A DNA stretch of 58,125 bases, the filler included, from Sphacelaria rigidula (lineage: Eukaryota): NCBI GenBank assembly GCA_964200075.2. It is 7 parts of 7 records of this genome, joined end to end, with 100 filler letters (N's around TTAATTAATTAA, not from the genome) between each part and the next. Parts side by side here need not be neighbours in the genome. Positions count along the whole stretch, not along the records: positions 24,956 to 33,173 come from CAXNAA020011879.1; 6 more parts are not named here. One strand, given 5' to 3'. Each line of letters begins with the position of its first letter. Position 1 is the stretch's first letter. The notes beneath the pieces are model-generated. The model saw nothing but the letters and a program-made list of their open reading frames with translations. It was not told where the DNA came from and searched no databases. A program made the translations under genes and the position numbers. Below are positions 1,175 through 56,933 of this stretch, in pieces.

Positions 1175-1387
1175 TAGAGGTGTCTCAAACTCGGCTCCCG
1201 GTACCCTGGTTTATTCGCTGGCTCTAAGCTGCGTACTTTTTTTTCAAGTAAAAGTGATCGCGATTCATGGGAGGACCTGACCTGGCAGTCAAACGGTCTC
1301 ATTATCTGATGAATTGGCATCACTTTCACTTGAAAAAATAGAACAAAACAAACCAGGATACCGGGAGCCGAGTTTGAGATACCTCTA
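1175..1387. mobile_element. MITE-like element with terminal inverted repeats of about 37 bp
   Basis: TAGAGGTGTCTCAAACTCGGCTCCCGGTACCCTGGTT ... AACCAGGATACCGGGAGCCGAGTTTGAGATACCTCTA. No clear target-site duplication. Confidence 0.75.
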
Positions 1388-13719: not shown

Positions 13720-14469
13720 ACCTCGTGCCATGTTGACGAGGAGTACTCGGGGCATTCGCAATCGAGGGTTTTGCAGCCATCACCTTGCTCAGTGGACGCA
13801 ATTATCGCGTCGTTGTTGTGGAAGTGGAGCGTAGCAGTTTCATGCCTGACTACTTAGTTTGTCTCACAGATGGAGCGGTAAAACAACTATGCAGGAACGA
13901 GTACCCGCACGAGTACACGAGTTCAACGAGGGTGTGGATTTCAACACCACGATGTAGCCGCAGTTGAAAACGCAGGGACCGCGTCAGAGCTCAACATGCC
14001 CATGGTGAAGGTTGGGGTCGGGGTCAGGGGCGTCGTCCCCATAGAGACTGGCCCTTTCGGTTTGGAAAAGCATGTCAGGCCCTAATTCGGCAGTTTGGTG
14101 TGTGCGGGTAGTCATGGTGATGCTACCGTCAAAGAAGCAGCGGTCTACTCTGGAGACGGGCGGAAACGGGTAGCGCGACAAATGACATCGAGTGCGGAGG
14201 AGCAGCGTCGGACAAAACGCACTTCAAATTGGCCATGCGTACGTGGCTAGTTTCGACGTTGAGTTGGAGAAGAGCACCAGTTACCTTGAATCGAAGCACG
14301 GATGGGACAGGCGATTCCACACGGCCCAGAGTGTGCATCAACTCATACGCCCGCGGCATCGACTTGGACTTGGTTTGCAAAAATTCACGAGTTGTGCTAC
14401 CACAAGAGGTGGGGGGGAAGATACTCGTTTGTTGCCCGCCTCATTGCGGGGGAATGTTATGATTTCAAG

Positions 14470-24955: not shown

Positions 24956-25036
24956 CATCTCGAAGTTAAACTTCAATTCGCACAATTTGTTGTTCTACCC
25001 TTCTCACCCCCCCCACCGCTCACTCCGCAACTGCCC

Positions 25037-25453
25037 ATGGACGACGGGGACATTTTAGGGACGCGAAACGACGTGAACAATCTTCCTGAACGTAGTAGGG
25101 ACTATGAGCTGAAAACAGACTTCTCCGCCCCATCACCGCGTTTGGTGGAGGACTGCGGGATCGATTTACATGCGCTGACATCAAAGTACGCGAGACGACG
25201 GTATTTTCTCTCAACGAGAACTGTCATCCCACATGATGTGGCAAAGACGAAGCTCGAGAAAAGCACGGGGTCACCGGCTAACGACGAGACCGTCATGGTA
25301 CTCGCAACACTAGGCAAGGGTTTTATCGCGAAGAGTATTGAAACGGTAAGAATGAGACAGCGTCAGGTTTCACCGGAGCTTTGCAGAAACGCAATCTCTG
25401 TTTCCGACTTGCTGGGGACTACGTTCAAAGACCCGGCGTTGGGTCTATCTTAG
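25037..25453 (+). CDS. TAF11 (TAFII28)-like histone-fold protein, viral
   Basis: RRYFLSTRTVIPHDVAKTKLEKSTGSPANDETVMVLATLGKGFIAKSIE...VSPELCRNAI aligns without gaps to the TAF11 core as recalled ([49 protein letters not shown]...LQPKHMREAV). Confidence 0.65.
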   Translation: MDDGDILGTRNDVNNLPERSRDYELKTDFSAPSPRLVEDCGIDLHALTSKYARRRYFLSTRTVIPHDVAKTKLEKSTGSPANDETVMVLATLGKGFIAKSIETVRMRQRQVSPELCRNAISVSDLLGTTFKDPALGLS

Positions 25454-26315
25454 ACGACAGAAAAATTGTCATGTCCTCGATGGTGGAAACGTCAGTCTGT
25501 GTTGCGAAGCTGTGTCGCTGGGATTCCATTTCTAAGGCTTCTCGGAGCTTGTCGCTTATAGCGTACAACTCGACTGCTTCCACCATTTTTGACAAGGGGA
25601 AGAAGGCCACGCAGTTGGAATACTCAAGGTCCAACTCGGGATCGCTCGAGCGTTCAGATAGGACACACTTACCACGTGAGCAGAGGTATTCGACTCGATG
25701 AGTCTCGAGCGAGGCGGATGGCCAGTAGTGCACGTTCAGAACGATTTTCGAACGTGAGATGAGGTCTTCTCTCTCCTCTCGAAACAGGTCGTTGTAACGA
25801 AACACGACTTTAAGCGATGTTGTTTTCGAGAGGTTCCTCTCAAGATCTTGGCGCCGAGGACACCTCGCGCTGTAGAAAAGCACGTCAATATCCTTTTCGC
25901 GAACTCTCGAAAAGTGTTGCTTCCTACTTAGACTTCCCGGGTAAAATATTTCCATCGGAACTCTCGTCCCAACATTGTAGCAAGTGATTCCAAGACTGCG
26001 AAAGAATGAGCAGTTCCGGGGAGAGAAGTCCCAAACACACAACGCCTCGCGTAGGTTTTGCAAGTACAACTTTGTCATCCATTTGGAACCAATCTGCTCC
26101 GCTTGAACCGCAATGTACTTGTCGGGAAGTTCCGAACAATTGACACGTTTTCGATGAAGACCAAGAATCACGTACAAGACGTCTTTGCGGAAGCCTGACC
26201 ATTCGAAATCTCTGTAGACGAGGTCGGCATGGAACCCACTCATGAATAGAGCGTCGCAGATGCCAACCGCCGTCTCCTCGAAAACAACGTGGCTCCAGAT
26301 GATCTGGATTCCCAT
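25425..26315 (-). CDS. GT-B fold glycosyltransferase-like protein (Glyco_trans_1_2/CgeB-like), viral
   Basis: Motifs YIAVQAEQ, VWDFS..N, KDIDVLFY...RR, LISRSKIVLNVHY....LETHRV and VLSERS.D. Likely ATG at 26315. The 3' end overlaps the neighbouring ORF by 29 bp. Confidence 0.75.
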   Translation of the reverse strand: MGIQIIWSHVVFEETAVGICDALFMSGFHADLVYRDFEWSGFRKDVLYVILGLHRKRVNCSELPDKYIAVQAEQIGSKWMTKLYLQNLREALCVWDFSPRNCSFFRSLGITCYNVGTRVPMEIFYPGSLSRKQHFSRVREKDIDVLFYSARCPRRQDLERNLSKTTSLKVVFRYNDLFREEREDLISRSKIVLNVHYWPSASLETHRVEYLCSRGKCVLSERSSDPELDLEYSNCVAFFPLSKMVEAVELYAISDKLREALEMESQRHSFATQTDVSTIEDMTIFLSSKIDPTPGL

Positions 26316-26353
26316 TCTACGAGGGTTTGGTTTTGTGTGTAGATAAAAAACAC

Positions 26354-27133
26354 TTAACACACGAACTTGTCAACAATGTCTCGCACAAGGTACTCGTACC
26401 GAGAGTAGCGGTCCGTGGTGGGGAAGCGTTCCGTGAGACCCAGGTTCAAGACGTTGTCGTAGATCTCAGAAAACCCCTCCACGACGCTAAGGGCGCGGTG
26501 ACTCAACACCAAAGGATATGCTTCGTACTTGAAATCCGTCGCCTTAGACCTGGAGGGGTCGATCTTGACGAAGGGTAAGACGACTTCGGAATGGACGACG
26601 TTAACACCGATGTTGCCGAGGAACTCCTTGGCGATTTCGCCCACGTACGCGCTAACAACGAACCTTGGCATACTCGAGACAGGTTTCAGGGTCGACTCGA
26701 TCGTACAACCAGAAGACACCAAGTCGTCGAAATACACATAGGCAAAGTTAGTGAATGCGTAAGACAACGAGAAACCTTTGGGGAGTGTCAGAATTCCTTC
26801 CAGGTTGCTCGAAATCTCCGGACACACTCGCAACGCCAACAGAAAGAAGAAGAGACTGCGCGAGGTAGGACATGACCCTTGGTCGACGACGGCGAACCAC
26901 TTCCTTTGTCCAAGCATGGCCTTGAAATTCAACACCGCTTTTGTAAACGCTGCCCTGAAGTCAGAGACGGAGACTACCTTGGTCCCGTTCTTCAAAACCT
27001 TTAAAAAGTCGGAACACGACAGATTCTTGGGCAGCGCTGACACCCTCAGTTTTGACCAATCCATCTCAGCGTCGACTACGGAGTCGTACAAACGCGAAGC
27101 TTCCTCCGCACCCTGGACGAGTAGAGGATGCAT
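26354..27133 (-). CDS. Phosphoribosyltransferase-fold (PRTase-like) protein, viral
   Basis: YVYFDDLVSSGCTIE matches the type I PRTase PRPP-binding loop (hhhhDDhhxSGxTh). Intact 259-aa ORF. Confidence 0.6.
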   Translation of the reverse strand: MHPLLVQGAEEASRLYDSVVDAEMDWSKLRVSALPKNLSCSDFLKVLKNGTKVVSVSDFRAAFTKAVLNFKAMLGQRKWFAVVDQGSCPTSRSLFFFLLALRVCPEISSNLEGILTLPKGFSLSYAFTNFAYVYFDDLVSSGCTIESTLKPVSSMPRFVVSAYVGEIAKEFLGNIGVNVVHSEVVLPFVKIDPSRSKATDFKYEAYPLVLSHRALSVVEGFSEIYDNVLNLGLTERFPTTDRYSRYEYLVRDIVDKFVC

Positions 27134-27228
27134 GAAACTTTATAATAGGGTCAACCAATATATATATATCAAATATTATGTTTCTTCGTAACAACACTTG
27201 TCTGCCGTAAACTTCTAAACCCCACCTG

Positions 27229-28362
27229 ATGTCTCTCAAGTACTTCGCGAGATACCGCTTCAACGGAAGCGACGTCGCAGAAGAAGACTTTGGCCTCAGA
27301 GACCTCGCGGTCGAATCCGGATCCTTAAACACTGCCGACGACACCACTCACGGCTCCTGTTTGTCCCTCGATGGCGCCACGTCCCTCCTCTCGACCGGGA
27401 GCTTCACGAACATAGCCGATTACACCGACAGATGCCTTTCCTTCTGGGCCAAAACGAACCCTGCCAGCGCTGGCAGCGCTGCCCCGGTACTTTGCTACGG
27501 AGAACTCGCCTCTCCGGATGCTTTCGTCTTGTACGCTAGGAATTCCAACGGATACCCTGAATACTACGACTACTCGACCAGGATTACCGACCCTAGCCCA
27601 ACGGTGGGAGTTGAAGTGGACACTTGGACGTTCTTCACGTTCTCTTGCAAGGCCGGCGTCATCAGCATATACGTCGACGGAAACCTATGGTATTCCCAAA
27701 GTATCACCTTGACCACAGGCACCTCCGACCCGCTCCGTTTAGGTACAGACGGCCAGGGAGAATACTTCACTGGGTACCTCCTTGACCTCCGCATATGGGA
27801 AACTTCCCTCGAAGGCTCCGTCCCCGGCTACATGTTTTCCGTCGGCCCCAACTACGAGGAAGAACTCTCGACGCAGTACGCGGAAGACACACATCAGAGG
27901 AGCTCCATCATGACGGGAAACGTGCTCTGTAGAACCACGTATGGTGTACAGACGACAGGGAGTACTTTGACACAGTCCTTCTTTTGCCTCGACGAAAACT
28001 CGGACATCCAGGAGGCGGCGAGGATCGAACACATCCAAGACTCGTCGGGCGTTGCATCTGAAACGATTCGGGTTCGCCACACAGAACCAGGCACTAACAA
28101 CAGGCTTCTCGAGAAAACGATAGAGATCACGCCAGAAACTATCACGTTCTTATCAACGCCAGAAACAGCAGACTCTGAGACGTCTTCGGTGATTTTTTCG
28201 TCGCAAGGCGTTCACCTCGTGGCCGGGGAAGAAGAAAAGGGGTGCATCTTTTTCGGAGCAGGAAGAGACTTTCGGATTAGAGTCCGTGACAAAAGCTTTC
28301 TGGTAGAAGCCTTTTCGTCTGTGACGGACGACTACCAGATAAAAATGGCGATATCGTCCTGA
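27229..28362 (+). CDS. LamG/concanavalin A-like lectin domain protein with a C-terminal beta-rich module, viral (possibly structural)
   Basis: LamG_3 pattern: CLSLDG...SFWAK...W.FFTF......IYVDG....LRLG......FTGYLLDLRIW..SL. The C-terminus G.IFFG...DFRIR....L.E.FS.....Y..K is shared with 29510-30484. Confidence 0.85.
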   Translation: MSLKYFARYRFNGSDVAEEDFGLRDLAVESGSLNTADDTTHGSCLSLDGATSLLSTGSFTNIADYTDRCLSFWAKTNPASAGSAAPVLCYGELASPDAFVLYARNSNGYPEYYDYSTRITDPSPTVGVEVDTWTFFTFSCKAGVISIYVDGNLWYSQSITLTTGTSDPLRLGTDGQGEYFTGYLLDLRIWETSLEGSVPGYMFSVGPNYEEELSTQYAEDTHQRSSIMTGNVLCRTTYGVQTTGSTLTQSFFCLDENSDIQEAARIEHIQDSSGVASETIRVRHTEPGTNNRLLEKTIEITPETITFLSTPETADSETSSVIFSSQGVHLVAGEEEKGCIFFGAGRDFRIRVRDKSFLVEAFSSVTDDYQIKMAISS

Positions 28363-28398
28363 TATTTGCAAACTTTTTTCTGTGCTTACCTTCAACAC

Positions 28399-29487
28399 AT
28401 GAGTTCTCTTCAAATCGACAGTTTGGGGTCGTCTAGAGTGGCGGTCAGCTGGGACGAAACTTTCGACAACTCTCTCTTCACACTAGACTTAGAAGACGCC
28501 AATGGCACCACCATAACGTCCATCGAAACGCAGGAGACTTCGGCTACGTTCCATGACCTGGATCCTAGCACAACGTACAACTTCAAACTGTACACCACTC
28601 CAACAACAGAACCAGTCTTGTACACCAAGATAAGAATCGATCACCCACATGCATTCTGGTTGTCGATCGTCGAAGTTGAGGTTTTCACGTGGCCGAACGA
28701 CACCAAACTGACCATCAACGATTTTGTACTGACTTCGTCGGGGACTTTAAGCCCGACCACATTAGACCTGTCTATGAATGGGAATAATGTACTGCCAACA
28801 TCTTGGCCCAGCACGGCAATGCTCGATTACCGCATATCTCCCACATTCTGGCAGGCCGTTCTCATCAGTTTCGCGCAGATATCAAAGGTACGCGTATACA
28901 CAGATAGCAGGTACAAGATAAACAGTGGGACCACCCTCACAATGACGAAAAATAACGGGGAACAGGTAGTCTATGATTTATACAGCGGAGAACACGCCGT
29001 GAACAACCTCCCGACCACACAAGAAATATCGGTACCAACCACAGATTACTCTACCAGTCATTCTCCAGTACCACAAGCCACGGCATACAAGAGTATACGA
29101 TTCCAAGGCGAATATACCAGATACATCACCCTCGTGGAACTTGAAGTTTATGATGGAAATGGGCAATATCTACACTCAGGTAACTTCAACATACACAGCA
29201 CATCGATCTTAGGTACCTATGCAGCGGGCAATGCGATGAACGGAAACAAGAGAACGAGCAGCTATGTAAACGGCGCGACAATTAGCCCAGGAACTAGTAC
29301 TACTCCCAACTACTGGCAAGCGGACTTCCTTGCTGTTACCGGGGTCAGCAAGATCGTGTTGTATTACTGGAATACCAGTTCGTACCTCAAATATTTATCC
29401 GAGAGCCAGCTAATCCTAACCGATACCGCCAACAACGAGACGTCTCACAATTTAGTTGGCACTGAAGTTCAAACTATCTACCTTTAA
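28399..29487 (+). CDS. FN3 domain plus two tandem discoidin/F5-8C (galactose-binding-like) modules, viral
   Basis: N-terminal FN3 (VAVSW...ATFHDLDPSTTYNFKLY). Then two copies of Y..IR.......L.(I/L)VE(V/L)EV(F/Y)...MNGN...(F/Y)WQA......(I/V)SK(V/I)..Y. Likely ATG at 28399. Confidence 0.75.
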   Translation: MSSLQIDSLGSSRVAVSWDETFDNSLFTLDLEDANGTTITSIETQETSATFHDLDPSTTYNFKLYTTPTTEPVLYTKIRIDHPHAFWLSIVEVEVFTWPNDTKLTINDFVLTSSGTLSPTTLDLSMNGNNVLPTSWPSTAMLDYRISPTFWQAVLISFAQISKVRVYTDSRYKINSGTTLTMTKNNGEQVVYDLYSGEHAVNNLPTTQEISVPTTDYSTSHSPVPQATAYKSIRFQGEYTRYITLVELEVYDGNGQYLHSGNFNIHSTSILGTYAAGNAMNGNKRTSSYVNGATISPGTSTTPNYWQADFLAVTGVSKIVLYYWNTSSYLKYLSESQLILTDTANNETSHNLVGTEVQTIYL

Positions 29488-29509
29488 CTAACGAATAATA
29501 CCTGAAACA

Positions 29510-30484
29510 TTACCTACCAAACTCCCTCTTGGTGTAGTACTCTCCGGAGCTTTGATCAAGGTGCTGAATCTGAATCGTGTCGGAAGTTTCGTCGTACTTC
29601 ATTCGGAATAGGCTACCGAGGGATAGGCTACCGAGGATGACGGCAGACTCGTTGGAACTAAACGAGAGGCCGTCGAAGTCGATCGTTGCGACAGACTCCT
29701 CACCCAACCCAGAAATACTCCGAATACTCACCGAGGAAGAATCAAGACTCAACACATTTTCAAGACTTCCGTCCAAATACGCAAGGTCCAGAAGAGAAGA
29801 CCCCGCCGTCAACATGAAGTCCGCCGTGTGCGTTTTCTTCGAAACGCAAGTTCGCTGATCAGTAGACGCATCGTGAAAGAAAACGTACGGCGCAATGGAG
29901 GTGTCCGAATTGTCCGACTTCTCCTCCAATTGGAATACCCCTGTCGTCATGATGTCACCGACAGCGAGGGTGCCGTCGTTAACAACAATCTCACTCTGGA
30001 CACCTTCCTCCGGGAATACTCTCACCAATGAATCCTCCAACAACAACACGATTGACCCCTTGGCGAGCACAACTCGACGCCCCCCGACCATGAAGGGAGA
30101 ACCGAAACCAACCTCGACTTCGTCAACTACAACCTTGTCATCCACGAACTCAAACTTGGAAGACGAGATGGTTAGGGTTTGGTTAGCCTCGAGCTTAGCG
30201 TCGGGAATACCCTCGAATGGAAGAAACACGTTCGTATCCAGGGTCGGGATGTCGGCGCCATCTTCCAAGAAAACCGCTTCCGTCACGAACTTTTTTGAGG
30301 AATCATGGTCTTCGCCGAAACTCACGTTCACACGCAACAAGTCACCGGTCTTGGCGTGCTGGTACAGAAACTTTTTCATCTCGGAAACGCCCGCCGGGTC
30401 CATCGACGCGACGTCAATGATCGAATTTTTCATAGACTCGTACAACAGACGAAGACAAGTCTCGTCCAGTTCCTCGAGATCCAT
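29510..30484 (-). CDS. Viral hypothetical protein sharing its C-terminal module with the LamG protein
   Basis: Intact 324-aa ORF. Its C-terminus DGLSFSSNESAVILG...FRMKYD....IQIQHLD...GEYYTKREF parallels that of 27229-28362. It carries an in-frame 15-bp tandem duplication near 29608-29636. Confidence 0.75.
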   Translation of the reverse strand: MDLEELDETCLRLLYESMKNSIIDVASMDPAGVSEMKKFLYQHAKTGDLLRVNVSFGEDHDSSKKFVTEAVFLEDGADIPTLDTNVFLPFEGIPDAKLEANQTLTISSSKFEFVDDKVVVDEVEVGFGSPFMVGGRRVVLAKGSIVLLLEDSLVRVFPEEGVQSEIVVNDGTLAVGDIMTTGVFQLEEKSDNSDTSIAPYVFFHDASTDQRTCVSKKTHTADFMLTAGSSLLDLAYLDGSLENVLSLDSSSVSIRSISGLGEESVATIDFDGLSFSSNESAVILGSLSLGSLFRMKYDETSDTIQIQHLDQSSGEYYTKREFGR

Positions 30485-30535
30485 TTGTTGGGTTTAAGTA
30501 GGGGAAATATATTAATGTCAGAGATTTAGAACTCT

Positions 30536-31423
30536 GTGATGTCTGATGCTCTGCCGGACGATGCTTGGGACAACGTACACGACTTCCTCGACTTCGAGGG
30601 AGAATACTTGTTTCTGGCACCGGTCTGTCGACGATGGCTAAAACAGACCCTGCTAAGACAAAAACACACACACATGACGGCGATGATGGCTATGATGGCT
30701 TCGCCGTCATGTATAGGAGAAGTCGGGAGACATCCACGGGGCAAGGATACCCTGGCGAAACAAAACGCTTGGGCGTTCCTGGCGGCGACACACACACACG
30801 GTTTCGACAGCCTTCAAGCACTAGCTAACGAACTCATCCTCACGATTGAATGGGACCCCTATTCGGTCAACACCGCGGCTCGGAACAACAACACGTACTT
30901 CTTCCAATGGCTGTGAACGACTACTCATGTCAACCTGGAATGGGATCCGTACCTGGCGATGAGTATCGCTTCACACGCCGAAAGTATTCCATTTCTTCAA
31001 CACATGTATCACCTAGGCTACTTTCCCGACAACAGATCAAGCACAGCAGCAGCACTCGTAGGTTCGACGAAGACGCTTCAATGGCTGCAACAAGTAGGAT
31101 GCGACATGGACAATGTGTTACAAGTCTTGGCCGAGGAAGGCCATCTTGAAACGTTTATCTGGGCAATATCAAACGGAATCCCTTACGATCAACACACTCT
31201 CAACGCTGCGGCATACGGAGGCCAAAAACACGTCGCACAGTACATCATACAAAACGGACACGGCTTCCCAGACAAGTTCACTATGCAATTCGCTGTATCC
31301 AACGGGAATAGGGAAACTATAGCTTACCTCAAGAAAATCAACCACTTTCGGCAGACAAGTTTGCGGCAGACACACTATCGGCAGACACGTTGGCAAAACG
31401 AATCAGACGGAAAGGACAACTAA
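30536..31423 (+). pseudogene. NCLDV-type degenerate ankyrin-repeat protein with an F-box-like N-terminus, interrupted by a nonsense codon
   Basis: ORFs 30536-30916 and 30959-31423 are in the same frame, separated only by TGA at 30914-30916. Read-through gives ..EWDPY..AARNNN..FQWL*TTTHVNLEWDPY..; repeats AA..G.L..L.W....G; N-terminus LPDDAW..V.DFL....YLFLAPVCRRW. Confidence 0.85.
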
Positions 31424-31497
31424 CTGACGCAGACGCCGATATCTTTTCCAAAACGTTCTTAGCCCTAGGAACAGAACTCTCAACCACTACGCCATAT

Positions 31498-31821
31498 TCA
31501 CCCCCTGAGGTACTTCTCGTGGAAGTCATCTTCCTCCTCGTCCTTCTGCGTCGCCAAGGAACCCTTCAAAAACTCGGCGCCAAATTTGTCGATAATTTCA
31601 CGAGCCCATTCCCCAGGAACCACCAGAAATGTGTGTAATGCGTCTGCGGTCATGTAGAACGCGATGTCGTCAGAAAAGTAGTGACAGATAAGCCCGTCTT
31701 TATCGCGAAGACTCGAAACCAGGGACTTCGCCTCCTGTATCGTGCCCTTCAGCATCGCGCTCATGTTGGTGGGCTTCAGAAACAACGGCCTCACGAACTC
31801 CTCGAAAGTCAAATCGCCCAT
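31498..31821 (-). CDS. Viral hypothetical protein (107 aa), possibly frameshifted at the 3' end
   Basis: ATG at 31821 follows an AT-rich spacer and the composition is coding-like. No recognisable motif. Confidence 0.55.
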   Translation of the reverse strand: MGDLTFEEFVRPLFLKPTNMSAMLKGTIQEAKSLVSSLRDKDGLICHYFSDDIAFYMTADALHTFLVVPGEWAREIIDKFGAEFLKGSLATQKDEEEDDFHEKYLRG

Positions 31822-31969
31822 CTTTGAAATTAATTGCTGAAGCTTTTGGTGGGCACGAAAAAAATGAACGAAGGGGGGCAACAAAATTCTTTCATTATCC
31901 ACAAATATATTTTGTATCTGAAATTTCAGACTTATTACGGTTTCATGAAGGTACACAACGGGTACACCT

Positions 31970-32937
31970 TTATTTATCCGAAAACATTTTTTCGACCGCC
32001 TTGACGTAGACGGGTCTGAATTTTTTCTGTATCCACTCGGACATCTCGGGGTCTATCGGACCAAAAACCCGGTTCCGAAAACGTTCGTCAAGAAAAGCCG
32101 AAATATCGGAAGACCTTTTCTTCACCTGCCGTAGCGGCATCCATTTCCGTATTTCTCTTTGATAAGATGCCATGAACTCCATGTACTCCGGGATTTCGAC
32201 GTAGACAACGCTAGTCGTCGTCGATGCTGCAGCCGTCGACGTGATCCTCATAAATACAGACGCGATGATATCGTAAACGACCTTGTACACGTCGTACTGC
32301 CGACAAATGGCTTTTTCTTCCTCCGAAAGGTCTGAGAACACCACGGCGTCGTCCCAATCAACCATCGCAATCTCGTCCGAGGGGGTGACGATAATGTTGT
32401 TGAAATGGAGGTCGCCGTGCGTGACAACTCGGTGCATCTTTCCCAACGCCACACCCAAAGACTTCATGCACTTCATGCGGCGCCGTAGTGGAACTCTCTT
32501 CCCAACCTGACTTACCATACTCTTGCCCTTGATCTCGGACAGCACCACGATACCCATGTCATCATTCAACCTCCGCCCATACACCAGTAAACGCGGAATT
32601 TCCACAATCTTCTTCGACAACGTCTTGAAAATGACGCCGTGTGTTGTCACCGAAATTATGTGCTGGAGGTCGGAATTGGTGACCTTGATGTACACGGGTT
32701 GCCTCTTATAATGTCCAAAATATACAAGCGATTGCCCAGGCGAAATGGCACTGATAAGACACAATCACGGGGTAAATCATAAAACGATTGCAGCAGTGAG
32801 CACGGAGATTGTTGATAGGTGCCTTGTCTTGATTTCCTTCGACGAGGAAGCCTATTGAACTTTTTTCGGACGACTCTCAAGTGCTCCGCGTTGATAGCGC
32901 ATCTCCGTCGTCGATCCAGACTTTCAGAAACCTTCAT
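31970..32937 (-). pseudogene. Protein-kinase-like (APH/RIO-type) phosphotransferase with a probable frameshift near 32760
   Basis: Motifs VYIKV, IPRLLVYG, VTHGDLHFNNII and MVDWDDA. The kinase frame has no ATG of its own (TGA lies directly upstream). Removing 2 nt from TGTGT joins it to the ATG-started ORF at 32937 (..YDLPRDC|LISAISPGQSLVYFG..). Confidence 0.7.
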
Positions 32938-32953
32938 GTCTTGTTATATTACC

Positions 32954-33173
32954 TTAACCCAAAGATTTAAAATTTAGTTGCCGTCGTCTTTCGAGGCACC
33001 AAAGTTTCCAACCCCATGGGAAACTTGTTTGAAATCGTAGAATAGGTCGATCCTCGAACGCGCGCGGATGTTTCAAGTTGATAGTTTCCAAATCTTGTGT
33101 CGAAACTGTGTCTTTTGCCTCGTGAAATAGCTTGAGGTTTCGTCCTCTTTCCAGAAGTATCAACTTGATCTCA
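32954..33173 (-). CDS. Possible 3' end of a viral ORF truncated by the contig end
   Basis: Open frame running from near the contig edge to a stop 16 bp before the kinase ATG. No motif. Confidence 0.35.
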
Positions 33174-36500: not shown

Positions 36501-39500
36501 TTCGCGTTAGATATAACATTTGGAACTAGCATGCGGTAAAAGTAAAGTACATGCAATCGAAGTACATCGATTGTGTGGTGAGCAGAGTACTGAGTCACGA
36601 TGTTAACAGACTATGCACCTTAAATTAGGGCTGAAGATCGGTGCGGCATCAAACCGTGAAAAACGACACGCAGTTGTAAATTTTGAGTCCCACATCAAGT
36701 TCTCACCTCCACCAAACCTCTAAATCTGCCGATCACATTGGCAACATGCCAAACCGGACTTCCCTCTTTCTCGGCCGTCGAAGAGCTAAGACCCTCAGCC
36801 TCCAGTGTATCGCTGTGGTCATACTCTGCCAGTTCCACCGTGGAAAATGCACTCAAGAGCTCACCCAGGCCATTGAACGGTTTATCGGGAAACAACACCA
36901 TGCTCAGCCTGTGATCCCCGTCAAGCACCGTCGAAGATTGAGCGAGGCCAGATAGAGGTCTGATGCAGTCCACAGATTGATGCATCGCGGTACACGAGCT
37001 CTAGAAAAACTCCAACACAACACACAGCACTACATGACAAATCGTAGACGAAACGACATGTATGTCTTGTCTCCCCTACCCCTCCCCAACGAAATCCCAA
37101 ACTCTCTTTAATGCTTTCCCGGTAACCAGATGGAACTTGCCTCTCACGGATCTCAACGAGCGAAGCGATGGACGAAAGAAGTCCGGGGTCGTCCGTGCAG
37201 GATCGACATACTTCTAGCGACTCCTTGAAGTTTTTGTCCCGCGGATGCTGCGGGACGGTGCCATCGATCATTGGGGACGCACGTGTTGCCCATGACATAT
37301 AGATGCGTATCTTTCAAACAAACCTTTTGACTAAACAGAAATTGCAAGAGATGTGCGCGATCAAAGCATCGAAAGATGTCGATCAACGAAAAGTTCGCAA
37401 AGTTCACAATTCGCCGCCCTGTGTGTGTGTGTGTGTGTGTGTGTGTCGTTTTTTTAATATTTTTAGGGCATTGTTCGGAAGTACCATCACGGCCGTATCT
37501 TACACGAATACAGTTTAGCACATTTATTATCTTATAAATGGCGGTGGGTCGTGAGCAAGGGATTTCAAACCTACATAAGAAGACATTCCTGGTGGCATCG
37601 CCATCCATAGAATGACTCGACACGTGCCATAAAATCGACAAAACACTGTTTAGCCTGCTGGCACAGCGAAATGAAACGCCAGCCTCGGGCAAGTATGCTC
37701 AAAGCCCAACTATACCTCAGGCAGCATACCTGAACCAGCCACCCGACCAGAGCAGGAGATTCTGAGAGCTTCTGCAGCATGCGTATGTGCATCCGAGAGA
37801 GATGAAGTGGCACACTTTTGCCCGTCGGACGCGAAAACGCAACCTCAAGCCCGCTCAGCACTCCACTTCCGACGCCTGTACACTTGGACTCAGGATCTCC
37901 ACCCCCCTTGCCCAGTAGGCCGTCGCTCCTTCCCCATGTTGTCACCCGTTTCCACGCTCGGGCGGCGTCGAGCAACGAATATTTCGCTTGGTTCATCCTC
38001 AAGTCTTCCACGATATTCTGGAGTTCCGCTCGGGTGGCGTCGTCCTCGGGCGCTGTTGCGAAAATCCGAGTCAGCGAAGAACCCGACGGCAGATCAGTCC
38101 GATGGCCTCCTTTTACCACCTTTACTCCGTCCTCGATCGATGCGGAAGTCGTTCCCGACTGTTCGGGCTGTGGACTGTTGTTCGTCGGGGCTGTACTGTG
38201 GCTCGTCGGGCCTGACTCGTTCGCCGTTTTCGAGGTTATGGCATCCAGACCTTCGCCTCTCAGAATATTCGCCGGCGCGCTACTGGCAGTGTGAAGCACG
38301 TCCTGGGCTTGCAGCAGTGCCGGTATAGCGCCCATGCACCACTCCACGGAAGCATGCGCTGCCAGAGCCTCCAAAATCTGTTGCTGATGCTGCCGAAAAA
38401 CGGTAGCTGCTGCTGGTGAGCCAGCCGTGGCTACTTCTTTCGTGGTAGGAGAGCTAAGCATTAGCTGAACCTCTGCGGCCCTTTGCTGCGTGGAGAGGCC
38501 CTCGCCAAGCCATTTCCACGCTTCATGAGCAGAGATGTTGCGAGCCGATATCCTGTCACGGAGGTCATTCCATGCTGCTCGTGCACCCGGAATGACGTGG
38601 CGCAGGACAGCCGAAAGTGGAAGTGCTATATCGGGCGTCGCTTCCCGGCTAGCAGCGCTACCACGTTTTTTATCCGCCCTTCTCGGTGCACTTCCATCGC
38701 TGTATTCCCCGTTGGCTTCTTCACCTTTCCTTCTGTCCCCTTCTCTGCCATTTCGCTGAGATTCCTCAGCTTTTTTTACAAGCGCTTTTTCGACCACTGG
38801 GACAGCGCGCGGTCGTATGAGATCCTTTCGTTCGACCACTACGTGATGGGTGTCCTCGTCGTAAGCGTTTCCCTTGCTGTTGGCAACGATTTTGATATTT
38901 TCAACCCGAAGTTCATTATCCTTACCATCGGAATCGTAAGAATCACAACCGCTGTCATCTGGGAGTCCATCGTCCTCACAATTAGACGTATCAACATCGC
39001 AGTCGCTCCTATCATCCTCATGAAGATTGCCAAGCGCCGGGGAATCCTCAAGGACCAACTTCAACGTCCCTGTTGAAATGTCTGCTCGAATGTACTCCGA
39101 GACGAAGAAACCTTGCCTTTCCTGCGCCATCACTTCTCGGCGTCGATATACTCGGCATTGATCGCCAGACACCATCGTGTCGTCGGCATCATCAAGGATG
39201 CGCTCTGATTGAAAGTTTAGCCGCAACGCAGCTGCAGTCTTTACCCAGATACGGAGGAAGACGGCACTTCGTTCGAGGGTGAGGAGTAGATCGAGCGTCA
39301 CCTCAGCAGCCTCGTCGTGATCAACATTCAGCGCTCGCTGCAAGACGAACGACTGCGAAAGGTGTTTCGACTTCAGAGTCCCGTTCTTGAGCTCTTGGCG
39401 TGATAGAGCGGCCGCAGTTCTGCGCGGGTTAGTACGAAGGTAAAGAGATGCTGGTAAAGGGCACAGGGCGGCGGGCCGGCCCGGGTGAGGCCACGTGTGT

Positions 39501-41036
39501 GTTGTTGTGTGTTGTCGTCCCTTCTATTCTGGATGCCGGTCTATACATTTCGGTATATGTGGCGCATCAGCCAGGGTCACATAGGAGGAAGGTCAACACA
39601 GGAGCTTTCGCTGTTTTATTGTTTTTAGTACCTCACCTTCCTTCTGCGGTGCTTGCCTTTATTGTTTATCGCGAGAGGGGTTCAGCGGTCCCTTTCCCTC
39701 GTCGGCTGTTAAGTCGAATTTTGTGTACCCACGACATAGTCGCTCTCCACTTTTGGGCATGGTGTGGGGAAAAGCGCAGATCGCTCCGAGAATTGAATCC
39801 ACGACCCAATCGTCAAAGGGTTTTGAGCCACCGGGGCGACCGTAGAACTCGCAATATATACGTGATGGAATAGGTTTTGTTTTGGCAGTTCACTGTGTTT
39901 GAAAATGAAGTACGAACGCAGCGAGTAGGTCACCTTTCTCGACGAAGGTTGAACACACTGATCAACTATACGGAGGATCATCTCTCTGGGGACGGTGAGG
40001 TGCCTAGATGTTAGGTAAATACGCCCAGCTCCGACACTTTCTACGATAGCCCCCCTCCCCAAAAGAGTGCGTGGTTTTGGGAGGCAAAATGTTCACGTAA
40101 ATCGAAATGGAAAAACCGAGCACAACGAGCAGCTGGGAATTCCCACGCTTGGGCTCGTTCTCGCCAATGTTGTCAAGATGAGGCGCTTCATGCAGTCTGA
40201 ACCCAAACATCAGGCGCTGTATGACCATTTGTTTCGTGACACTTTTGGGCTGGTGTTGGGCAGGTGCTATCGTAGAAAGTGTCCTCCGCGTGGACATTCA
40301 TGACCACTCCGCATGCTCGAAACCTTCTAATCATCCAGCATATCAAACCGTGAAGAGTATAACAAAATTCGTGGTCGGTACTACTGACATCGCGGGTAAA
40401 GCTTGTGGTCGGACTCATGGAAGAGAGGTGATGACGGTACAACCAAAAGCGACTAAACAGCAACACGGAGCGAAAAAGACTTCCATTTGCGTTTTTACCT
40501 CTCTCAGTGCGATGCCTTTTTACCGCTGCACCAGCTGTGGACCACGTGTTACTACCCACACTTGCCCCACCGTCAAGTGGCGGGATCATGTGAAGGTCCC
40601 CTTGAGATTCTATGAGATACCAATACCTACGCAAGGATCATTGTCTATTGTCATCCATGCACGAATTTCTGTGTAACACGGCGAGAAGCAGGATCATCCT
40701 ATAAACTCGTTAGTTCAAATATCGTTTAAAGCATGCGCTTTTAGGATCGGGCTAGCCTTCATTTGCAAATCGTATTCCGACGACCTTACAAACTACAGTA
40801 CGCGAATTCCACCCAAGGACTTACGCCAGGTGGGCTCCGTCGACACCAATGGCGGGGCAGTAGGTGGACGCCAACACGTCCACCCGGTCCAGTACGCGTG
40901 AAAAATCTTTGAGGTCGACGATATAGGCGTCCAGCTTGCTGCGGAGCATCGTATTTTTCGCTTCTTGATCGGACTCGTTGCGCGCAGCATTGCGGGTGCC
41001 GCTCAGGTTGACGATACCGCCCGCCTGCATCTTCAG
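33534..41036 (-). CDS. Internal part of a very large RNF213/mysterin-like protein: exons 41036-40825, 40626-40499, 39450-37730, 37247-37141, 36908-36707, 35669-35319, 34070-33991, 33638-33534
   Basis: All eight exons join in phase into one open frame of about 970 codons. Ordered motifs EELLGLRARLAIM, ILYTVQGLCEAGHPSYQGEW and W.AQV..AREK resemble the RNF213 region just before the first AAA module. The gene model is strong; the family call is moderate. Confidence 0.7.
34150..34660 (+). mobile_element. Decayed 3' fragment of an RTE-type LINE inside an intron
   Basis: Remnants LLTAEVIEIMLYDCV and LSYHEVLERTGCNCIEATV...LLFADHVARM...G.R..GRP parallel the translation of 46209-46676. Confidence 0.75.
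39495..39842 (-). mobile_element. tRNA-derived SINE, near full length
   Basis: Head CGGTCGCCCCGGTGGCTCA...GTGGATTCAATTCTC is shared with 33274-33344. It ends in a CA/CAA-rich tail. Confidence 0.65.
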
Positions 41037-41591: not shown

Positions 41592-44361
41592 GCGATCCGA
41601 GGCGGGGCGGTGTACGCATGAACATGCAGGCCATAGTCATAAGACCATTGACCTCGCACCCCTACACAGCCGGGACGGAGCACGCCGGGTTTTCGCCGGA
41701 CCAGGCTGGGGGAGGGGGGGGGGAAGGGGAGCGGGGTGCTGGAAGCGCGCCGGTGGAAATATGTTCGCCTTGTCATGTTCCACGATACTAGTCAATGTTC
41801 CGCGGATCCGGGTGGGGGGGCGTACTCATTTGTTGCTTGCCTTAGTCGTTTGACCATTGACCACGCATCCCATTCGAGATGGAGCATCCGGGTGGGGGGG
41901 AGGGTATTACAGGAAGCGCACTGAGGGTTAAAATATATTCGCCAGGTCACGTTCCACGATGTTGTAGCTTGTTCCGAATGTCGGGAGGGGGAGCAGGAGG
42001 GTTGCTGGAAGTCTTGGATTGCCAAGAATAGCCGGATAGCCGCAAGATGCAGAGCACTGCGAATACCGGAGGTAATCATGAACCTTTTACTTCACGCTTA
42101 TCGTGCAGTCGGCAAAGGTAGGAAGGGGTACGTTCGGCGGCAGGGTCGGGTTGAGATCAGCGGCAATGAGGGGTAGGAGGGGGGGGGGGTTGCTGTCGCC
42201 CGCGTTGCTCTGATGGCGTCGGCTGAAATCTGGGTTCTTGGGGCATTGTGGCGAAGCTGGATTTTAGTGTGACCATAGGTTGTGGCGACGCATGTCTGAT
42301 GCCGTCGCTACCGATGCTCTGAAACTAGCGCCCATCGGTCAGTTTCAGTTTGGGTTCTTCCGAAGCTGTGGCTATGCTGTAGCTCAGTGGATGCAAAAAA
42401 CGCAGCGCGTGTTGTAGTGGCGTTTTGGTGCGGCGTATTACAGTATCGCGCGCATGTTGTCGTTACTCCGTGAAGAAAATGGTTTTGTACTGTGTGCATA
42501 TCTGCTTATCGATATGCATATCTATAATTCCTCATTTTCTCCATTTTTGCCTTGTGTTTAATTCGTCCGCTTGCTTGATATCATTATGCTGTTCTCGGCG
42601 AGTCATTCGTGGGGGGCGGGGAGGGGGGTTCTTGTTTGGTTTTTCGTCTGTGGCATCTAATCGCGATTTTTGTGTGCTCGTACATCTCCGTTCTGGTGGT
42701 ACATGTTGTGTATGTGAACACACCCGGCTCCTCTTCTCATCATCTCAATGGGTGTTCTCACTTGAGTATACTGTTTGATTTCAGTGACACGCTAGCAACG
42801 GCGTATTGTGCAATACTCCATTGTTCGTTCGCGCAAGACACCGCGCGATGCTATATATATATATATATATTCAAGAGTATATACTAAAAAGGTTTTCATT
42901 CACCCAGTCTCTGTACAGCAGTATTTCACACCCCGGATAACGACCACAGATAACATCGTCGAAAAGTGCACTGCGTACAGTCTGGAATCTAATGTCCATT
43001 GTAATAGACGCCATAATCGATACTATACGCAGTACATTTTCTGCCAACGTAGTCCATTGTCGAGGGTGTACAGTAATTTTTGTCTGTCGTGCGTACAACA
43101 GGTGTGTGTGTGTGTGTGTTTTTTTTTCTGTTTCAAATCTGAGTTCAGTGTCGTGTTGCTGAAGGTGTGGACCGCCGTGAAGGTGGTGGTAGTAGTGCCA
43201 GTCAGGCTTTCGTGGTGGTTGTAGCAGGCGTTAGTGAGTTATTCCCCGAGTTTTTGTACTTCGAGCAGCTGAGTTTTTAGTGGAGTATTTTCTCTGAAGT
43301 AGCGCGGGATGTGAAGGTGAACCTCGTCATGGTCGTTGTTTCCGGATTTTTCGCTTGGCGATACATTGAGGCTGCATTGCAGTTTCATTGAAGTTGAGGC
43401 CGACCACTTTAATCGGGTGTCAATACGGAGTGAATAACATCATACCCTTCAACCGGGATTGTGGGAAAATGGTATCTCTCGAAGGGATATGTTGGATTAT
43501 TTGATGGTGCTCGGATTTGGGGGGAGATAATACCCCTCTGAGGCACCTTGGAGAGGTACCATTTTCCCCACATCCGAAGGCCATCGAAAAACTTCGTCCT
43601 TATGAAGAACATCCGTTCCCATTCTTCAGAACATCTGGTAAAATGGTGTAGACCGTGGATCTCTACATTATTCATGTAATTGTATTGTTGAGCTTGTCCA
43701 GGGTTGAGCGCAAACAAGTGATTCAACCAGGGAATACTCCTGAGGCTGACTGTCTTGGCGAAAATCACTTCTTCCCTATCTCACTGCACTCCATACGCAA
43801 TTATTCTATAATAGGCCGAATCACGAAGCTGACTTCAGCCGAAACGACTGGTTTCTGCCACGTATTGTATCGCGTCCCGGATTATCTCCTCTCCATACAG
43901 GATGAGAGTTAAGGGTCAAGTACGAAAGCAGTAAAACGAACCACTATTCAGAGTGCATCATCTTGAGGGCGGTGAGGTCATGATCCAGTACATTTTTGTG
44001 CGAGAAAATAACGCGTCACGCGTGTGTGTAGAAATAAATGCCAATGCGTTGATTTGTTGATTGTTGCATTTATGTTGTGAACTGTTCAACGATAATAGCA
44101 CGAGATTGTTGAATTTGCTGATGGATTTGTTTTGCACGATAAATAAGCCTTGGGAGCCTTCATAACCATCCAAATGTTCAACACAAAAATTTGAGTGCAT
44201 TCTGCGGTCGTGATGTGTGGCCTCGTTCATAATCGCTGAAGATACATCGGCAATTTACAGTATCCCCCGTGTTTATTCCGAACGATGTCGACGTCCGTTG
44301 CTTCTCGTGCAAAACATTCGTCCCCATTGTATAGAAACTCGTGTTGAGGCACACCGAGGCA

Positions 44362-46940
44362 GAATACGAACGTAGTCGTGCACCCCCAACCCGCACCCCC
44401 GGCTAAAGCTGACTCGGATCACAACATGATGGTGGCCACTGTCGACCTCGGTGGCCGCCTTGCCCACAACCGCCAAGTACGCACCAAATCGAAGCAGCGG
44501 CAATTCAGTCGACAGCAGCTGCAGACCGAAATGGCACGGTGGCACGTGACCGAGAGGATCCTACATAACCTCGGCGAGCAAAAATACCAGCCAACCACCA
44601 CCGCACCGGCGGCCGCGATGGAGTTTACCGAAGCTATCCTCGAAGCAGCGCAGACAGTACTCCCGGAAGAGGCACGGATACCACGCATGCCGGAATGGTG
44701 CGAAAACCCCCACACGAGAGCAACACTGGAGGCAGCGCTTGCTAATCGACGGGAGGCACGCCGACTGATGAAGGATCACCGGACCCCAGCATTGTGTAAA
44801 GCACTCAGAGCCGCGTGTAAGAGCGGACGTACAGCAAAAGACGACGGCACCGATGCACATCTGAAGAGGTATGTGACGAGGCTAGAAGCAACCTACAAGG
44901 ATCGCGATATCAGAGGCCTGTACAAACACCTCAAGAGATCGGTGGGTCTTGATGTAAGGCAATCCGGGGGACAGCAGTCCATAAAGGATGAGAACGGCGT
45001 CCTACTGAGGACCAAAATTGCCATCCTTGAACGGTGGGTGAGGTTCTTCCACACCCTGCTCAACGCCAAACCGCCCACGCTGAACCCAGTCATCATCGAG
45101 GAGATAAAGCAGCGACCGGTAGCTTCAACCACCGGTGATTCGGTACCGCTTGGGGCAGCGCCAACACTGGAGGAAACCAGACGAGCAGTCCGAGGGATAC
45201 AAAACTGGAAAGCGCCAGGGCATGGCTCCCTTCCTTTGAAGCTACTTAAGATCGACGGCTGGGCCGAACTCATCGTCCTCGACGCTTCCATACCATTCTC
45301 GTCGAGGTGTGGAACGGAGGGGAGGTCCCGCAGAGTGGAGAGACGCAACGATCAAGGTGCTGTACAAGCAATGGGACCGGTTGATCTGCAACAACTACAA
45401 CGGGATCTCTCTGGTATGACACGCAAAGAAAGTGCTCCTGAAGATACTGGCCACCTCAGCGACTATTGCGAAACGCACGGGATATTACCTGAGGAACAGT
45501 GCGGCTTCCGACCTGATCGTTCCACTGTCGACATGCTGTTGGTAGTGCGCCGACTCCAGGAGCTGGGACGGCGGCGGAGAATACCGCTGTACATGTGCTT
45601 CGTCGACCTCTAGAAGGTACATGACTCGGTCGACCGAGAGCTTCTGTGACAGGTACTGGCCCGAGCTAGTATCCCGGATGAGATGACTGCAGTTATCCGT
45701 CAATTCAACGACGGTATGCAGGTCTGCGTGCGCATGGACGACGGGGAGCTCTCGGAGTGGTTTGAAGTCACACAGGGACTGCGACAAGGATGTGTGCTGT
45801 CTCCCCTGCTGTTTAAATCCCTCTTCGCGGTAGTACTCGAGATAGTCCTCGTGCGATTCAGCGAGGACGATATCATCATCAAGGACATGGCATATCTCGA
45901 TGAGGAGACGTTGAGGGGGGCGGAGACACCGCTGGAACGTGCACGGAGAGCGAGGTGGGGAATGCTGTATGCCGACGATGCCGGCGTCGTCTCGAGATCT
46001 CCCGACGGACTGGCGAGGATGATGACCATCATAGTGGACGTGTTTGAGGCCTTGGGACTGACCCTATCGGAGAAGAAAGCGGAGGCTCCCTTGATGCGCG
46101 TACCGAGGCAAGTACCGAAGAAGGGGGAGTCACCAACACCATCTCCAGAAACCGCTAATCATCGAAGCAGCGGGCCAGAAACATGCCCAGAAAACTAGTT
46201 TCCGATGCTTGGGCGGGCTCGTCAACGAAGACGGCGAACTCAAGCAAGAAATCAACAATCGGAGCAGAGCAGCGTGGGCGTGCATCGGAAAGTTCTCCCG
46301 GGGGCTCTTGGATCGACCGAAAGCACCGTGGAGACTCAAGGTCCGACTACTGCAAGCGGAGGCAATGAAGGTCCGACTATACGGATACATGACGTGGGCC
46401 CCGCGCCGCGAACACTGCGACTTGCTGAGAAAGGTACACTATCGGCTCCTCCTGCGAGTCATCGGGTACCGCCGGGTGCGCGGTACATACCGACAGCTTT
46501 CGCATGCACAGGCCCTCAAGAAAACCGGATGCCGAAGTTCCGAAGCCATCGTCCGGCAACGACGACTGCTATTCGCGGGAGTCCTAGCTAGACAACCAGA
46601 CAGACGACTATCGAAGCGAATAGCATTCGGAACACTAGTCGGGAGGGAGGACCCAGGACCAGGGTGCCCGGAATAAAACTGGCTGAAGTGCCTGAGGGAC
46701 GATCTCCACGCTTTCGAAGCCACAGGCGAGCCTACGGATGGCAACCGCCAGACATTTGGAAGTGACCGCGTCCTCTGGCCCTCAGCAGCGAATTCGAAGG
46801 GGGGGTTGCCGTGGCACGCGGGAGTGCTGCAGGGAGTGGAGAGGTTCAGACCTCATGGCACAGAAATGAAGAGGAGGCCAGCTGACAGCGTGCGATTGGA
46901 CGGGACACCAACGAAGCCAACACAACAATGAAGACGGTCC
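44362..46940 (+). mobile_element. 5'-truncated, inactivated RTE-type non-LTR retrotransposon (end of APE endonuclease plus RT)
   Basis: Motifs [54 protein letters not shown] and LYADD. In-frame stops (e.g. 45611-45613) and frameshifts are present. Confidence 0.93.
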
Positions 46941-55183: not shown

Positions 55184-56209
55184 CAGAGTTTACAGAACTA
55201 TCGGGTACCGGTATGAAAGTCTTACAGAAATTACAGAACTTGTCGGGTACGGTACGTGAGGCTTACAGAGAGCCGGTACCGGCAATCGCGTAACTTATTT
55301 AGGGCATACCCGCCCGTCGGGTTAGGGTAAAGTTTTTGTACAGAGCTCACAGAACTGTCGGGTAAGGGTATGGGAGGCGTGCAGAACTCACAGAAACTGT
55401 CGGGGAGGGTTTGGGGGTTGCACAGAAAACCGTACCCGCAATCAGGTATCTCACCAAGAGCGTACCCGTGCCCCCCTGTAACGGTACGGGAGTCTTGCAG
55501 AGATTTCAGAACTATCGGGTAGCGAAATACAGATGACAGTTCACGAAAACTCTGAACGGCTTCACGGGAAAGACTACACGAACAATCGCAGTAGTACATG
55601 TGCACGGGATCGTCAACATCTATCTGCTTCACGTACACTCGTAGGGAGTATATAGAAGAGCACTCACGGCTGCCCGTTCTCTGGAAGCCCATCGGCACGC
55701 GACAAAATCGCCGACGGCCTTGATGACTTTTGGTGGCGGCTCATACTCTTTGCTATACATGTCGATAACGATCGGGCGTTTGATGACCACGACACAACCA
55801 CCATCATCGTCGAGGACGTGCGTCTTGCTACTTGACCCCCTGGTAGCGCAGATGAATCGCCCCCGCTCGAACCGCCACTCGATTCTGGGGATGATCCATC
55901 ATGACGGTCTGCAGTGCTGCTCATGTTTCGTGTTTCCATTCAGCGGTACCTCGTATCCCGTCAGATTACGAACTAGAGAACTTTTCAACATTGAACTATT
56001 GTTAGTGTGCAGTTTTGAATGAAGGGGTCGGGTGGGTTGATCGATGTGAGATACATGTTGAGGTCATGCGGTTGTGTGTGGATCGAACCTATATCCGTAC
56101 CTCCCCAAGGTATATACCTTTGCTCACAACTGCAATCAGGCATATCTATAACGGTATACCCTAACCCCGGGTAGGGGTATCGGAGGCTTACAGAGCTCAA
56201 AGAACTGTC

Positions 56210-56465: not shown

Positions 56466-56933
56466 TGTCGGGTACCGGTACACTTACATAAATTACAGAA
56501 CTTGTCGGGTACGGTGAGGCTTACAGAGAACCGGTACTGGCAATCGCGTAACTTTTTCAGGGCATACCCGCCCCTCGGGTTAGGGTAAAGTTTTCGTACA
56601 GAACTCACAGAACTGTCGGGTAAGGGTATGCGATGGTCGCAGAACTCACAGAAACTGTCGGGTAGGGTATGGAGGTTGCACAGAAAACCGTACCCGCAAT
56701 CAGATATCTCATCAAGAGCGTACCCGTGCCCCCCGGTAACGGTACGGGAGTCTTGCAGAGGTTTCAGAACTATCGGATGGGGGTATGAAGGTCTTACAGA
56801 GTTTACAGAACTGTCGGGTACTGGTATGGAAATCTTACAGAAGTCACAGAACTGTCGGGTACGGTAAATACCAGACAAAATACCCCGAGTATATAGAAAA
56901 CCGTACCCTCCAGAACACAACCTGAGAAATTAT

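Follow-up and report, generated by a model that had tools for sequence, protein, structure and literature searches.

A phaeovirus-type contig in the Sphacelaria rigidula assembly is probably a fragment of an integrated and decaying endogenous viral element

Phaeoviruses integrate into the genome of their host within a latent life cycle, and giant endogenous viral elements (GEVEs) are present in green algae and other protists, Euglena providing one example (PMC12455990). Here we describe an 8.2-kb contig (CAXNAA020011879.1) from the Sphacelaria rigidula assembly GCA_964200075.2 which is very probably of viral origin. We propose that it is probably a fragment of a phaeovirus-type (Nucleocytoviricota) genome which persists as an integrated and decaying endogenous viral element (EVE) in a brown-algal nuclear genome. 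Like the GEVEs it would represent integrated Nucleocytoviricota DNA under erosion; unlike them it would belong to a different viral lineage in a different host, and it is a small fragment.

The closest described systems are the viral regions of brown algae. In the genome census of Denoeud et al. (bioRxiv, 10.1101/2024.02.19.579948), 792 viral regions were recorded from 72 genomes and 67 of 69 brown algae carried phaeovirus insertions. These regions are described there as mostly 2–50 kbp in length, mono-exonic and silent, 59% of them being without any host flank. According to McKeown et al. (2025; PMC11890097), most EVEs of one brown alga are degenerate, and those of Porterinema include ankyrin, glycosyltransferase and Ser/Thr-type kinase gene classes. 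Our contig resembles the published regions and EVEs in its dense, mono-exonic viral genes, its short length, its partial nature with no full core set, its unclear flanks and its signs of degeneration, and it carries the same three gene classes as the Porterinema elements. It differs from the census regions in being only 8.2 kb long and having no marker gene; since the census screen was confined to contigs >10 kbp and required Nucleocytoviricota (NCV) marker genes, this contig would escape it. It thus fits the known picture as a small, marker-free and partly decayed piece of brown-algal viral DNA.

The window, by which we mean the whole stretch of 58,125 bases that was analysed, joins seven contigs of 8217–8219 bp each with N/TTAATTAATTAA spacers between them, and the target is the fourth contig, at exactly 24956–33173. 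In a protein database the target's own glycosyltransferase (GT)-like and LamG proteins are assigned to a contig 8218 bp long, and the target is therefore a whole contig. An earlier note on this DNA had described about ten compact, intronless open reading frames (ORFs) here, and the measurements agree: ATG-started ORFs of at least 100 amino acids (n=11, the longest 377 amino acids) cover 85% of the target, compared with 22–47% of each of the six other contigs and with a mean of 5% (maximum 15%) in 20 shuffles of the target. The spacers between ORFs measure 16–148 bp and the single overlap, of 29 bp, lies at 25425–25453, much as the note had given them. Its count of about ten ORFs needs the correction that two pairs among them are single genes split by a frameshift or a stop (ORFs are designated o1 to o11 below). 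The GC content of the target (49.4%, against 46.7–51.2% in the others) does not distinguish it. By blastn among the seven contigs the target had no match, in keeping with the claim that it lacks the repeats of its neighbors, while each of the six others has at least one repeat in common with another contig. When all seven were compared by tblastx with the fetched viral and metagenomic loci, the target produced 266 high-scoring segment pairs and the other six none. Neither Rfam nor tRNA scanning had any hit in the whole window. Pfam was run on ten ORFs of the target, and on ten ORFs from the six other contigs, where no family scored above its cut-off.

The affinity to phaeoviruses is clearest for o4 (27229–28362, plus strand), a 377 amino acid protein that appears intact and contains a Laminin_G_3 domain (LamG, PF13385; 50.4 bits against a cut-off of 27.6). 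Besides its own record it has 66 relatives, those named to organism being from a Feldmannia species virus and Ectocarpus sp. 6. Along its whole length it shares 44% identity with FeldSpV_gp124 (YP_002154746.1) of Feldmannia species virus 158 (FsV-158), and it is 45% identical to a copy on a 1.8-Mb scaffold of Ectocarpus sp. 6. The FsV-158 gene lying directly after gp124 is homologous to o6 (29510–30484, minus strand; 324 amino acids), with 36% identity by tblastn and 40% identity (E-value=3.6e-48) in a single-ORF search of FsV-158. In all, o6 has four matches in that genome, the best being the one beside gp124. Among the six ORFs compared with FsV-158, o4 and o6 had clear matches and o5 a weak one, restricted to its fn3 part (E-value=1.4e-5). 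As in the gp124 region, the target thus has both a LamG protein and a paralog sharing its C-terminal module, from a family which is multi-copy in FsV-158. It differs in that identity is 36–44%, that the fn3/discoidin-like gene lies between the two genes which are directly adjacent in FsV-158, and that o6 is on the opposite strand. On sequence grounds we consider o4 and o6 to be specific phaeovirus homologs in conserved order.

The predicted structure of o4 points the same way. Its four best matches in BFVD are FsV gp124, two more FsV proteins and FirrV-1-C1, and the matches as a whole are dominated by LamG-annotated viral proteins. Together with the adjacent FsV-158 homologs, this supports the phaeovirus-like taxonomy put forward in the earlier note. 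The same note had envisaged a possibly divergent lineage, a suggestion which the LamG proteins do not bear out. In a maximum-likelihood tree of 31 of them the window copy groups with the database protein P0045 (support 100/99), FsV gp124 falls on a long branch inside the window copy's clade of 15 rows (94/91), and the Ectocarpus sp. 6 copy falls outside that clade. In the underlying alignment FsV gp124 shares 47% identity with the window copy, against 37% with that of Ectocarpus sp. 6. The position of gp124 inside this clade means that LamG, the one placeable gene, does not set the contig apart from the phaeovirus diversity known so far.

Could these genes be bacterial or otherwise cellular? 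LamG, fn3, ankyrin and APH-like kinase domains are found in bacteria also, and the Atlas structure neighbors of o6 are bacterial lactonases, but these have TM scores of 0.35 or less to a poor model (predicted local distance difference test, pLDDT, 0.39). The homolog lists of o2 and o4 contain no named bacterial match, and NCBIfam returned nothing for eight of the nine window ORFs scanned, the ninth, o8, reaching only 16.4 bits to a thiolase-domain model with a cut-off of 514. The named relatives are phaeovirus and brown-algal, including for o2 a single one, on a 0.59-Mb scaffold of Pylaiella littoralis (43% identity). These relatives, and the synteny with FsV-158, led us to reject both an ordinary cluster of cellular genes and a contaminant of bacterial or other non-viral origin, which are effectively refuted.

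Several genes of the contig appear to be broken. One is a small gene of the atypical protein-kinase fold (APH/RIO/Bud32-like), read from o11 and o10 on the minus strand at 31970–32937. Pfam APH was recognized at 27.4 bits (cut-off 23.2) over the catalytic-loop stretch only, within o10 (31970–32557). From an exhaustive representative search 11 relatives emerged, and P0151, a 341 amino acid protein of 79% identity, is the nearest of them. Residues 27–75 of this homolog align to 32922–32755 in frame -3, and residues 75–338 to 32758–31973 in frame -2; a second relative (P0152, 36% identity) splits at the locus in the same way. The frameshift site, at about 32755–32758, is not in a homopolymer run.

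The second broken gene encodes ankyrin repeats (30539–31423, plus strand). It comprises o7 and o8, which share a reading frame but are parted by a TGA at 30914–30916; the ankyrin part, o8 (30959–31423), has an Ank_2 domain (29.6 bits, cut-off 27.3). The comparator is L035, a 6.3-kb contig from a JGI metagenome that is collinear with the window (70% identity for o4, 70% for o6, 43% for o7–o8 and 34% for o9). Unlike the window, it has the ankyrin gene as one open frame, and its gene between the o4 and o6 homologs is shorter (227 amino acids) and unrelated by tblastn. The 220 amino acid ankyrin ORF of L035 aligns across the TGA over 226 columns (E-value=3e-57). A reading of this TGA as a sense codon was rejected, as nothing suggests it. 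Weaker evidence indicates that o9 (31386–31878, minus strand), to which no function is assigned, is probably frameshifted toward its 3' part: residues 9–108 of its 196 amino acid L035 homolog align in one frame, and residues 161–195 in another (E-value=5e-4, one-sequence search).

Logan contigs from two sequencing runs, X1 and X2, reproduce 24973–33079 and 24973–33099 with 0 and 1 differences, respectively, and no gaps. The breaks are therefore not errors of this one assembly, from which, it should be said, these Logan contigs may not differ in sample. The kinase, ankyrin and o9 genes together give the signs of decay to be expected of an endogenous viral element, as judged from their alignments. 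In a third run, X3, a single contig with a depth of 4.7 leads from 32741 to 32350, a step back of 392, beside the kinase frameshift site. This low-depth contig is suggestive of a tandem duplication, or of a second and rearranged copy, in the sample of that run.

A phaeovirus which is actively replicating or can be reactivated, be it as free virions, as episomal DNA or as an intact latent provirus, is an unlikely source for the contig. Its genes are compact, broken accessory genes would still be compatible with a viable virus, and Ectocarpus endogenous giant viral elements are reported to be able to reactivate (PMC13236599). Against this source and for a decaying relic stand the frameshift in the kinase relative to a homolog of 79% identity, and the in-frame stop in the ankyrin gene. 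The ends of the contig and its representation in the sequencing runs, to which we now turn, also bear on this choice.

X1 and X2 derive from one sample and X3 from a second, all three belonging to one study; X4 comes from another study with the same species label. The share of the contig's words recovered was 1.00 in X1, 0.99 in X2 and 0.31 in X3, in the last case as identical fragments with a depth of 2–4.7. The body of the contig is assembled as one contig with depths of 27 (X1) and 69.2 (X2), compared with about 3 in X3 and 0 in X4. The left end is quite different. Summed over contigs, the depth of the first bin reaches 182,079 (X1), 299,397 (X2), 11,358 (X3) and 416 (X4), and positions 24956–24995 are matched by hundreds of other contigs which diverge from 24994–25000 onward. 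This high-copy dispersed repeat occurs once in the window, and is found in X4, where the body leaves no trace. No exact match to a 28-mer of it was found among viral contigs, and neither end of the contig matched the fetched loci. The ratio of repeat to body depth is about 6,700 in X1, 4,300 in X2 and about 3,700 in X3, so that the second sample lies within the two-fold spread between two runs of the first. We regard the left 40 bp as a dispersed repeat which is very abundant in the host genome, and as a probable junction with host repeat DNA.

The right end is moderately repeated. Over the last ~120 bp (33050–33173) the summed depth is 484 (X1), 381 (X2) and 17.9 (X3), or 5–18 times that of the body. 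This sequence is found on separate short contigs of depth 40–865, of which one, of 211 letters, continues past the end, and a minus-strand gene runs off the contig here (32957–33172; 72 codons of its 3' end, with the start beyond the right end). Since both assembly breaks are at repeats, a fragment embedded in a repeat-rich genome is favored. The earlier note had stated that no host junction was present; this must be revised, as the first ~40 bp and the last ~120 bp are repeats far above the copy number of the body. Its suggestion of a provirus or endogenous element gains indirect support, short of proof, from the high-copy repeat at the left end, the broken genes, and the occurrence in two samples at a similar ratio, and we consider integration likely but not proven. 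Two findings speak against an active virus: at its left end the contig enters a repeat whose depth exceeds that of the body by thousands of times, and the second sample contains the identical sequence, its depth relative to that repeat being similar. The insert may be transcriptionally silent; in three possibly-RNA runs under the same species label almost none of the contig's words occur, which tells neither for nor against silence.

These data also bear on whether the contig derives from a second organism in the sample, for example a brown alga living as an epiphyte or endophyte, another stramenopile, or a virus of one of these. Such an origin would account for the lack of repeats in common with the six other contigs, and close relatives with 55–83% identity are found in many assemblies and on marine metagenome contigs. 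The left-end repeat, however, is extremely abundant in the three DNA-type runs and present in the run of a different study under the same species label, which fits the main organism, and the contig occurs in two samples. The six neighbors amount to 49 kb, and to miss in them a repeat occurring once per tens of kb is expected. A second organism is accordingly a quite improbable source.

The evidence for the host itself is small. The sixth contig contains, at 44348–45613, a 421-codon ORF which represents the front part of a long interspersed nuclear element (LINE) reverse transcriptase. The best matches to it (67% identity) lie on Mb-size ENA contigs, and its database relatives form clusters with as many as 1221 member sequences on contigs of such size; a single relative is named to organism, that of Ectocarpus sp. 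CCAP 1310/34 (52% identity). Because of this relative, and of the copies of the viral genes in Ectocarpus and Pylaiella scaffolds, the host is likely to be a brown alga.

The sequence of events that we favor for the endogenous element is as follows. A phaeovirus would have integrated into the host genome during its latent life cycle. The insert would then have decayed, at least one gene becoming frameshifted and one acquiring a premature stop. Finally, short-read assembly would have broken at the repeats on both sides, to leave an orphan contig devoid of core genes.

A number of points weigh against this interpretation. No unique host sequence joined to the viral body was found at either end, a result which also suits an active virus, as does the full-length agreement of o2, o4 and o6 with their homologs. 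The left 40-bp repeat could be a mobile element within a larger viral genome. The depth-ratio argument compares the repeat with the body only, in two samples, and in X3 at a depth of 2–4.7. The ankyrin and o9 breaks depend on a single comparator, L035, and the identity of the host depends on one transposon ORF. The genus-level placement is derived from accessory genes and no core gene, and three of the six ORFs tested (o2, o3 and the kinase) had no match in FsV-158, so that the GT-like, PRTase-CE-like and kinase genes set the contig apart from that virus. The Pfam scan recognized on the contig neither an integrase (recombinase/resolvase) nor a hybrid histidine kinase. It likewise found none of the NCLDV (nucleocytoplasmic large DNA virus) core genes, namely those for major capsid protein (MCP), PolB, A32 ATPase, D5, VLTF3 and SFII, in line with the earlier note's statement that capsid, polB and packaging ATPase genes are absent. 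In a fragment of 8.2 kb the absence of markers is uninformative for the whole element, and that of the integrase and histidine kinase is to be expected.

The genes present appear to be accessory ones: a GT-like gene, a PRTase-CE-like gene, three coding for β-rich proteins, the ankyrin gene and the small atypical kinase. At the left, o1 (25037–25453, plus strand; 138 amino acids), a putative gene, has no assigned function, with no Pfam hit above cut-off and no tblastn match among 55 fetched loci; its 3' end overlaps o2 by the 29 bp mentioned above. The product of o2 (25425–26315, minus strand; 296 amino acids) appears intact and is GT-like. Its Pfam Glyco_trans_1_2 score, 18.6 bits, is below the cut-off of 25, and the corresponding PF13524 is annotated in the protein database on four of its homologs. 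Its relatives number 42 apart from its own record, the best of them with 81% identity, and homologs of 274–302 amino acids span 93–99% of it. From these domains it may be a sugar-modifying enzyme. o3 (26354–27133, minus strand; 259 amino acids) may be a phosphoribosyltransferase-like protein of the PRTase-CE type. The Pfam match is below cut-off (E-value=0.029) and its Atlas features score 0.92–0.93 to PRTase-CE clusters, in one of which Nucleocytoviricota is the commonest taxon; we take this identity as a lead only. Neither o3 nor o5 had a tblastn match among the 55 loci.

The three β-rich proteins are o4, o5 and o6. An AlphaFold model of o4 (pLDDT 78.7) shows residues 1–210 as an all-β sandwich with block pLDDT values mostly of 85–96, so that o4 is predicted to be a concanavalin A-like lectin/glucanase protein with the jelly-roll fold, followed by a C-terminal β module. 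o5 (28399–29487, plus strand; 362 amino acids) contains an fn3 domain (27.3 bits, cut-off 25) and then two discoidin-like repeats; its two halves are 29% identical over 119 amino acids (E-value=7e-9), and F5_F8_type_C was below cut-off (E-value=0.036). The N-terminal part of o6 is unassigned; the protein matched no Pfam family and gave no usable feature hit in Atlas. These three are probably virion-surface, host-surface or adhesion proteins, as judged by their domains. No Pfam family was found for o7 or o9, and the partial ORF at the right end had no Pfam hit at E-values up to 1.

The last ~150 residues of the LamG and o6 families are homologous (hhalign probability 98.3%, E-value=2.5e-14, 146 columns). 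This module spans residues ~224–377 of o4 (27904–28359) and ~171–323 of o6 (29513–29974), and in FsV-158 the LamG/o6-type pair bearing it is likewise adjacent. Modelled alone, it forms an all-β meander of 11 strands (pLDDT 88.6) for which Foldseek found no PDB match at an E-value of 0.001 or less. The best VIA-align result was to the C-terminal fragment of the phi92 membrane-piercing protein (Z 7.7, rmsd 2.9, 85 aligned), which is below the ~8 common for unmatched models; other phage spike, VgrG and Rhs pieces had Z values of 5–7, below the meaningful level of the tool. A spike- or fibre-like trimeric module is, on these models, a lead. A literature search with "phaeovirus" and "LamG" found no paper.

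Relatives of these genes are found in environmental sequences. A single-protein scan of viral contigs with the GT-like protein gave no match; a scan with the GT-family alignment yielded 34 IMG/VR loci, the best (40% identity) on a contig of 199,675 bp and the second in a giant-virus metagenome-assembled genome. The LamG-family alignment identified three IMG/VR loci (FsV-158, a 21.6-kb contig and the 199,675-bp contig) and 18 loci in JGI metagenomes. The 199,675-bp contig therefore holds both genes, LamG at 42% identity. Two stretches of 20 kb were read for its gene content, and included genes for a ribonucleotide reductase (RNR) small subunit with glutaredoxin, a papain protease, a response-regulator receiver and a replication factor C (RFC)/Rad17-like AAA protein, with an F5/8-type-C protein adjoining the LamG gene. 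This set is NCLDV-like, and papain protease, RFC subunit and RNR are named among phaeoviral EVE genes in PMC11890097. On JGI contigs L038–L040 and L042 the GT and LamG genes are at most 4 kb apart; L039 differs from the window in having a methyltransferase and another gene between them. Nine pairs of GT and LamG matches come from contigs of equal size (e.g. 5314, 59535 and 43396 bp), which are presumably the same contigs.

Two arrangements among these relatives were seen in passing. Contig L038 (24.5 kb) has the GT and LamG genes twice in inverted orientation, at 1075–6773 and 10001–14098; in this related viral contig either a large segment was duplicated and inverted, or the assembly folded back. 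Contigs L049 (5131–13548) and L052, both from JGI, carry up to nine tandem LamG-like paralogs with 27–38% identity to the N-terminal domain of o4, the array adjoining an o6-like gene that starts with an fn3-like segment. In this distant relative the same modular family forms an expanded array.

Perhaps the contig samples a widespread, undescribed lineage related to the phaeoviruses. This is a tentative idea, drawn from the conserved linkage of GT and LamG in dozens of contigs with 55–83% identity, free-living marine metagenome contigs among them, and from the absence of the GT-like, PRTase-CE-like and small atypical kinase genes from FsV-158. The LamG protein, its paralog and the FsV and FirrV proteins might then constitute a modular family in which variable N-terminal binding domains are joined to the ~150 amino acid C-terminal β module, possibly as part of a host-attachment or capsid-anchoring apparatus.

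Two of the neighboring contigs also have features of their own. The fifth, which has the second-highest ORF coverage (47%), contains an open frame of 650 codons at 37571–39523 on the minus strand, with no Pfam family, which probably represents either a large exon of the host or a protein encoded by a repeat. The seventh has several arrays of a 41-bp tandem repeat (53089–53209, 54737–55427 and 56575–56864), including a higher-order unit of 192 bp, which are host satellite-like DNA.

With phaeovirus insertions in 67 of 69 brown-algal genomes in the census, this contig alone matters little. Its ORFs should not be annotated as host genes. Short, marker-free viral contigs of this kind escape the filters of the census, and the viral load of fragmented brown-algal assemblies would thus be under-counted. 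The β module, recurring several times as it does in FsV-158 and FirrV-1, provides a concrete candidate for a structural or attachment family of the phaeoviruses.

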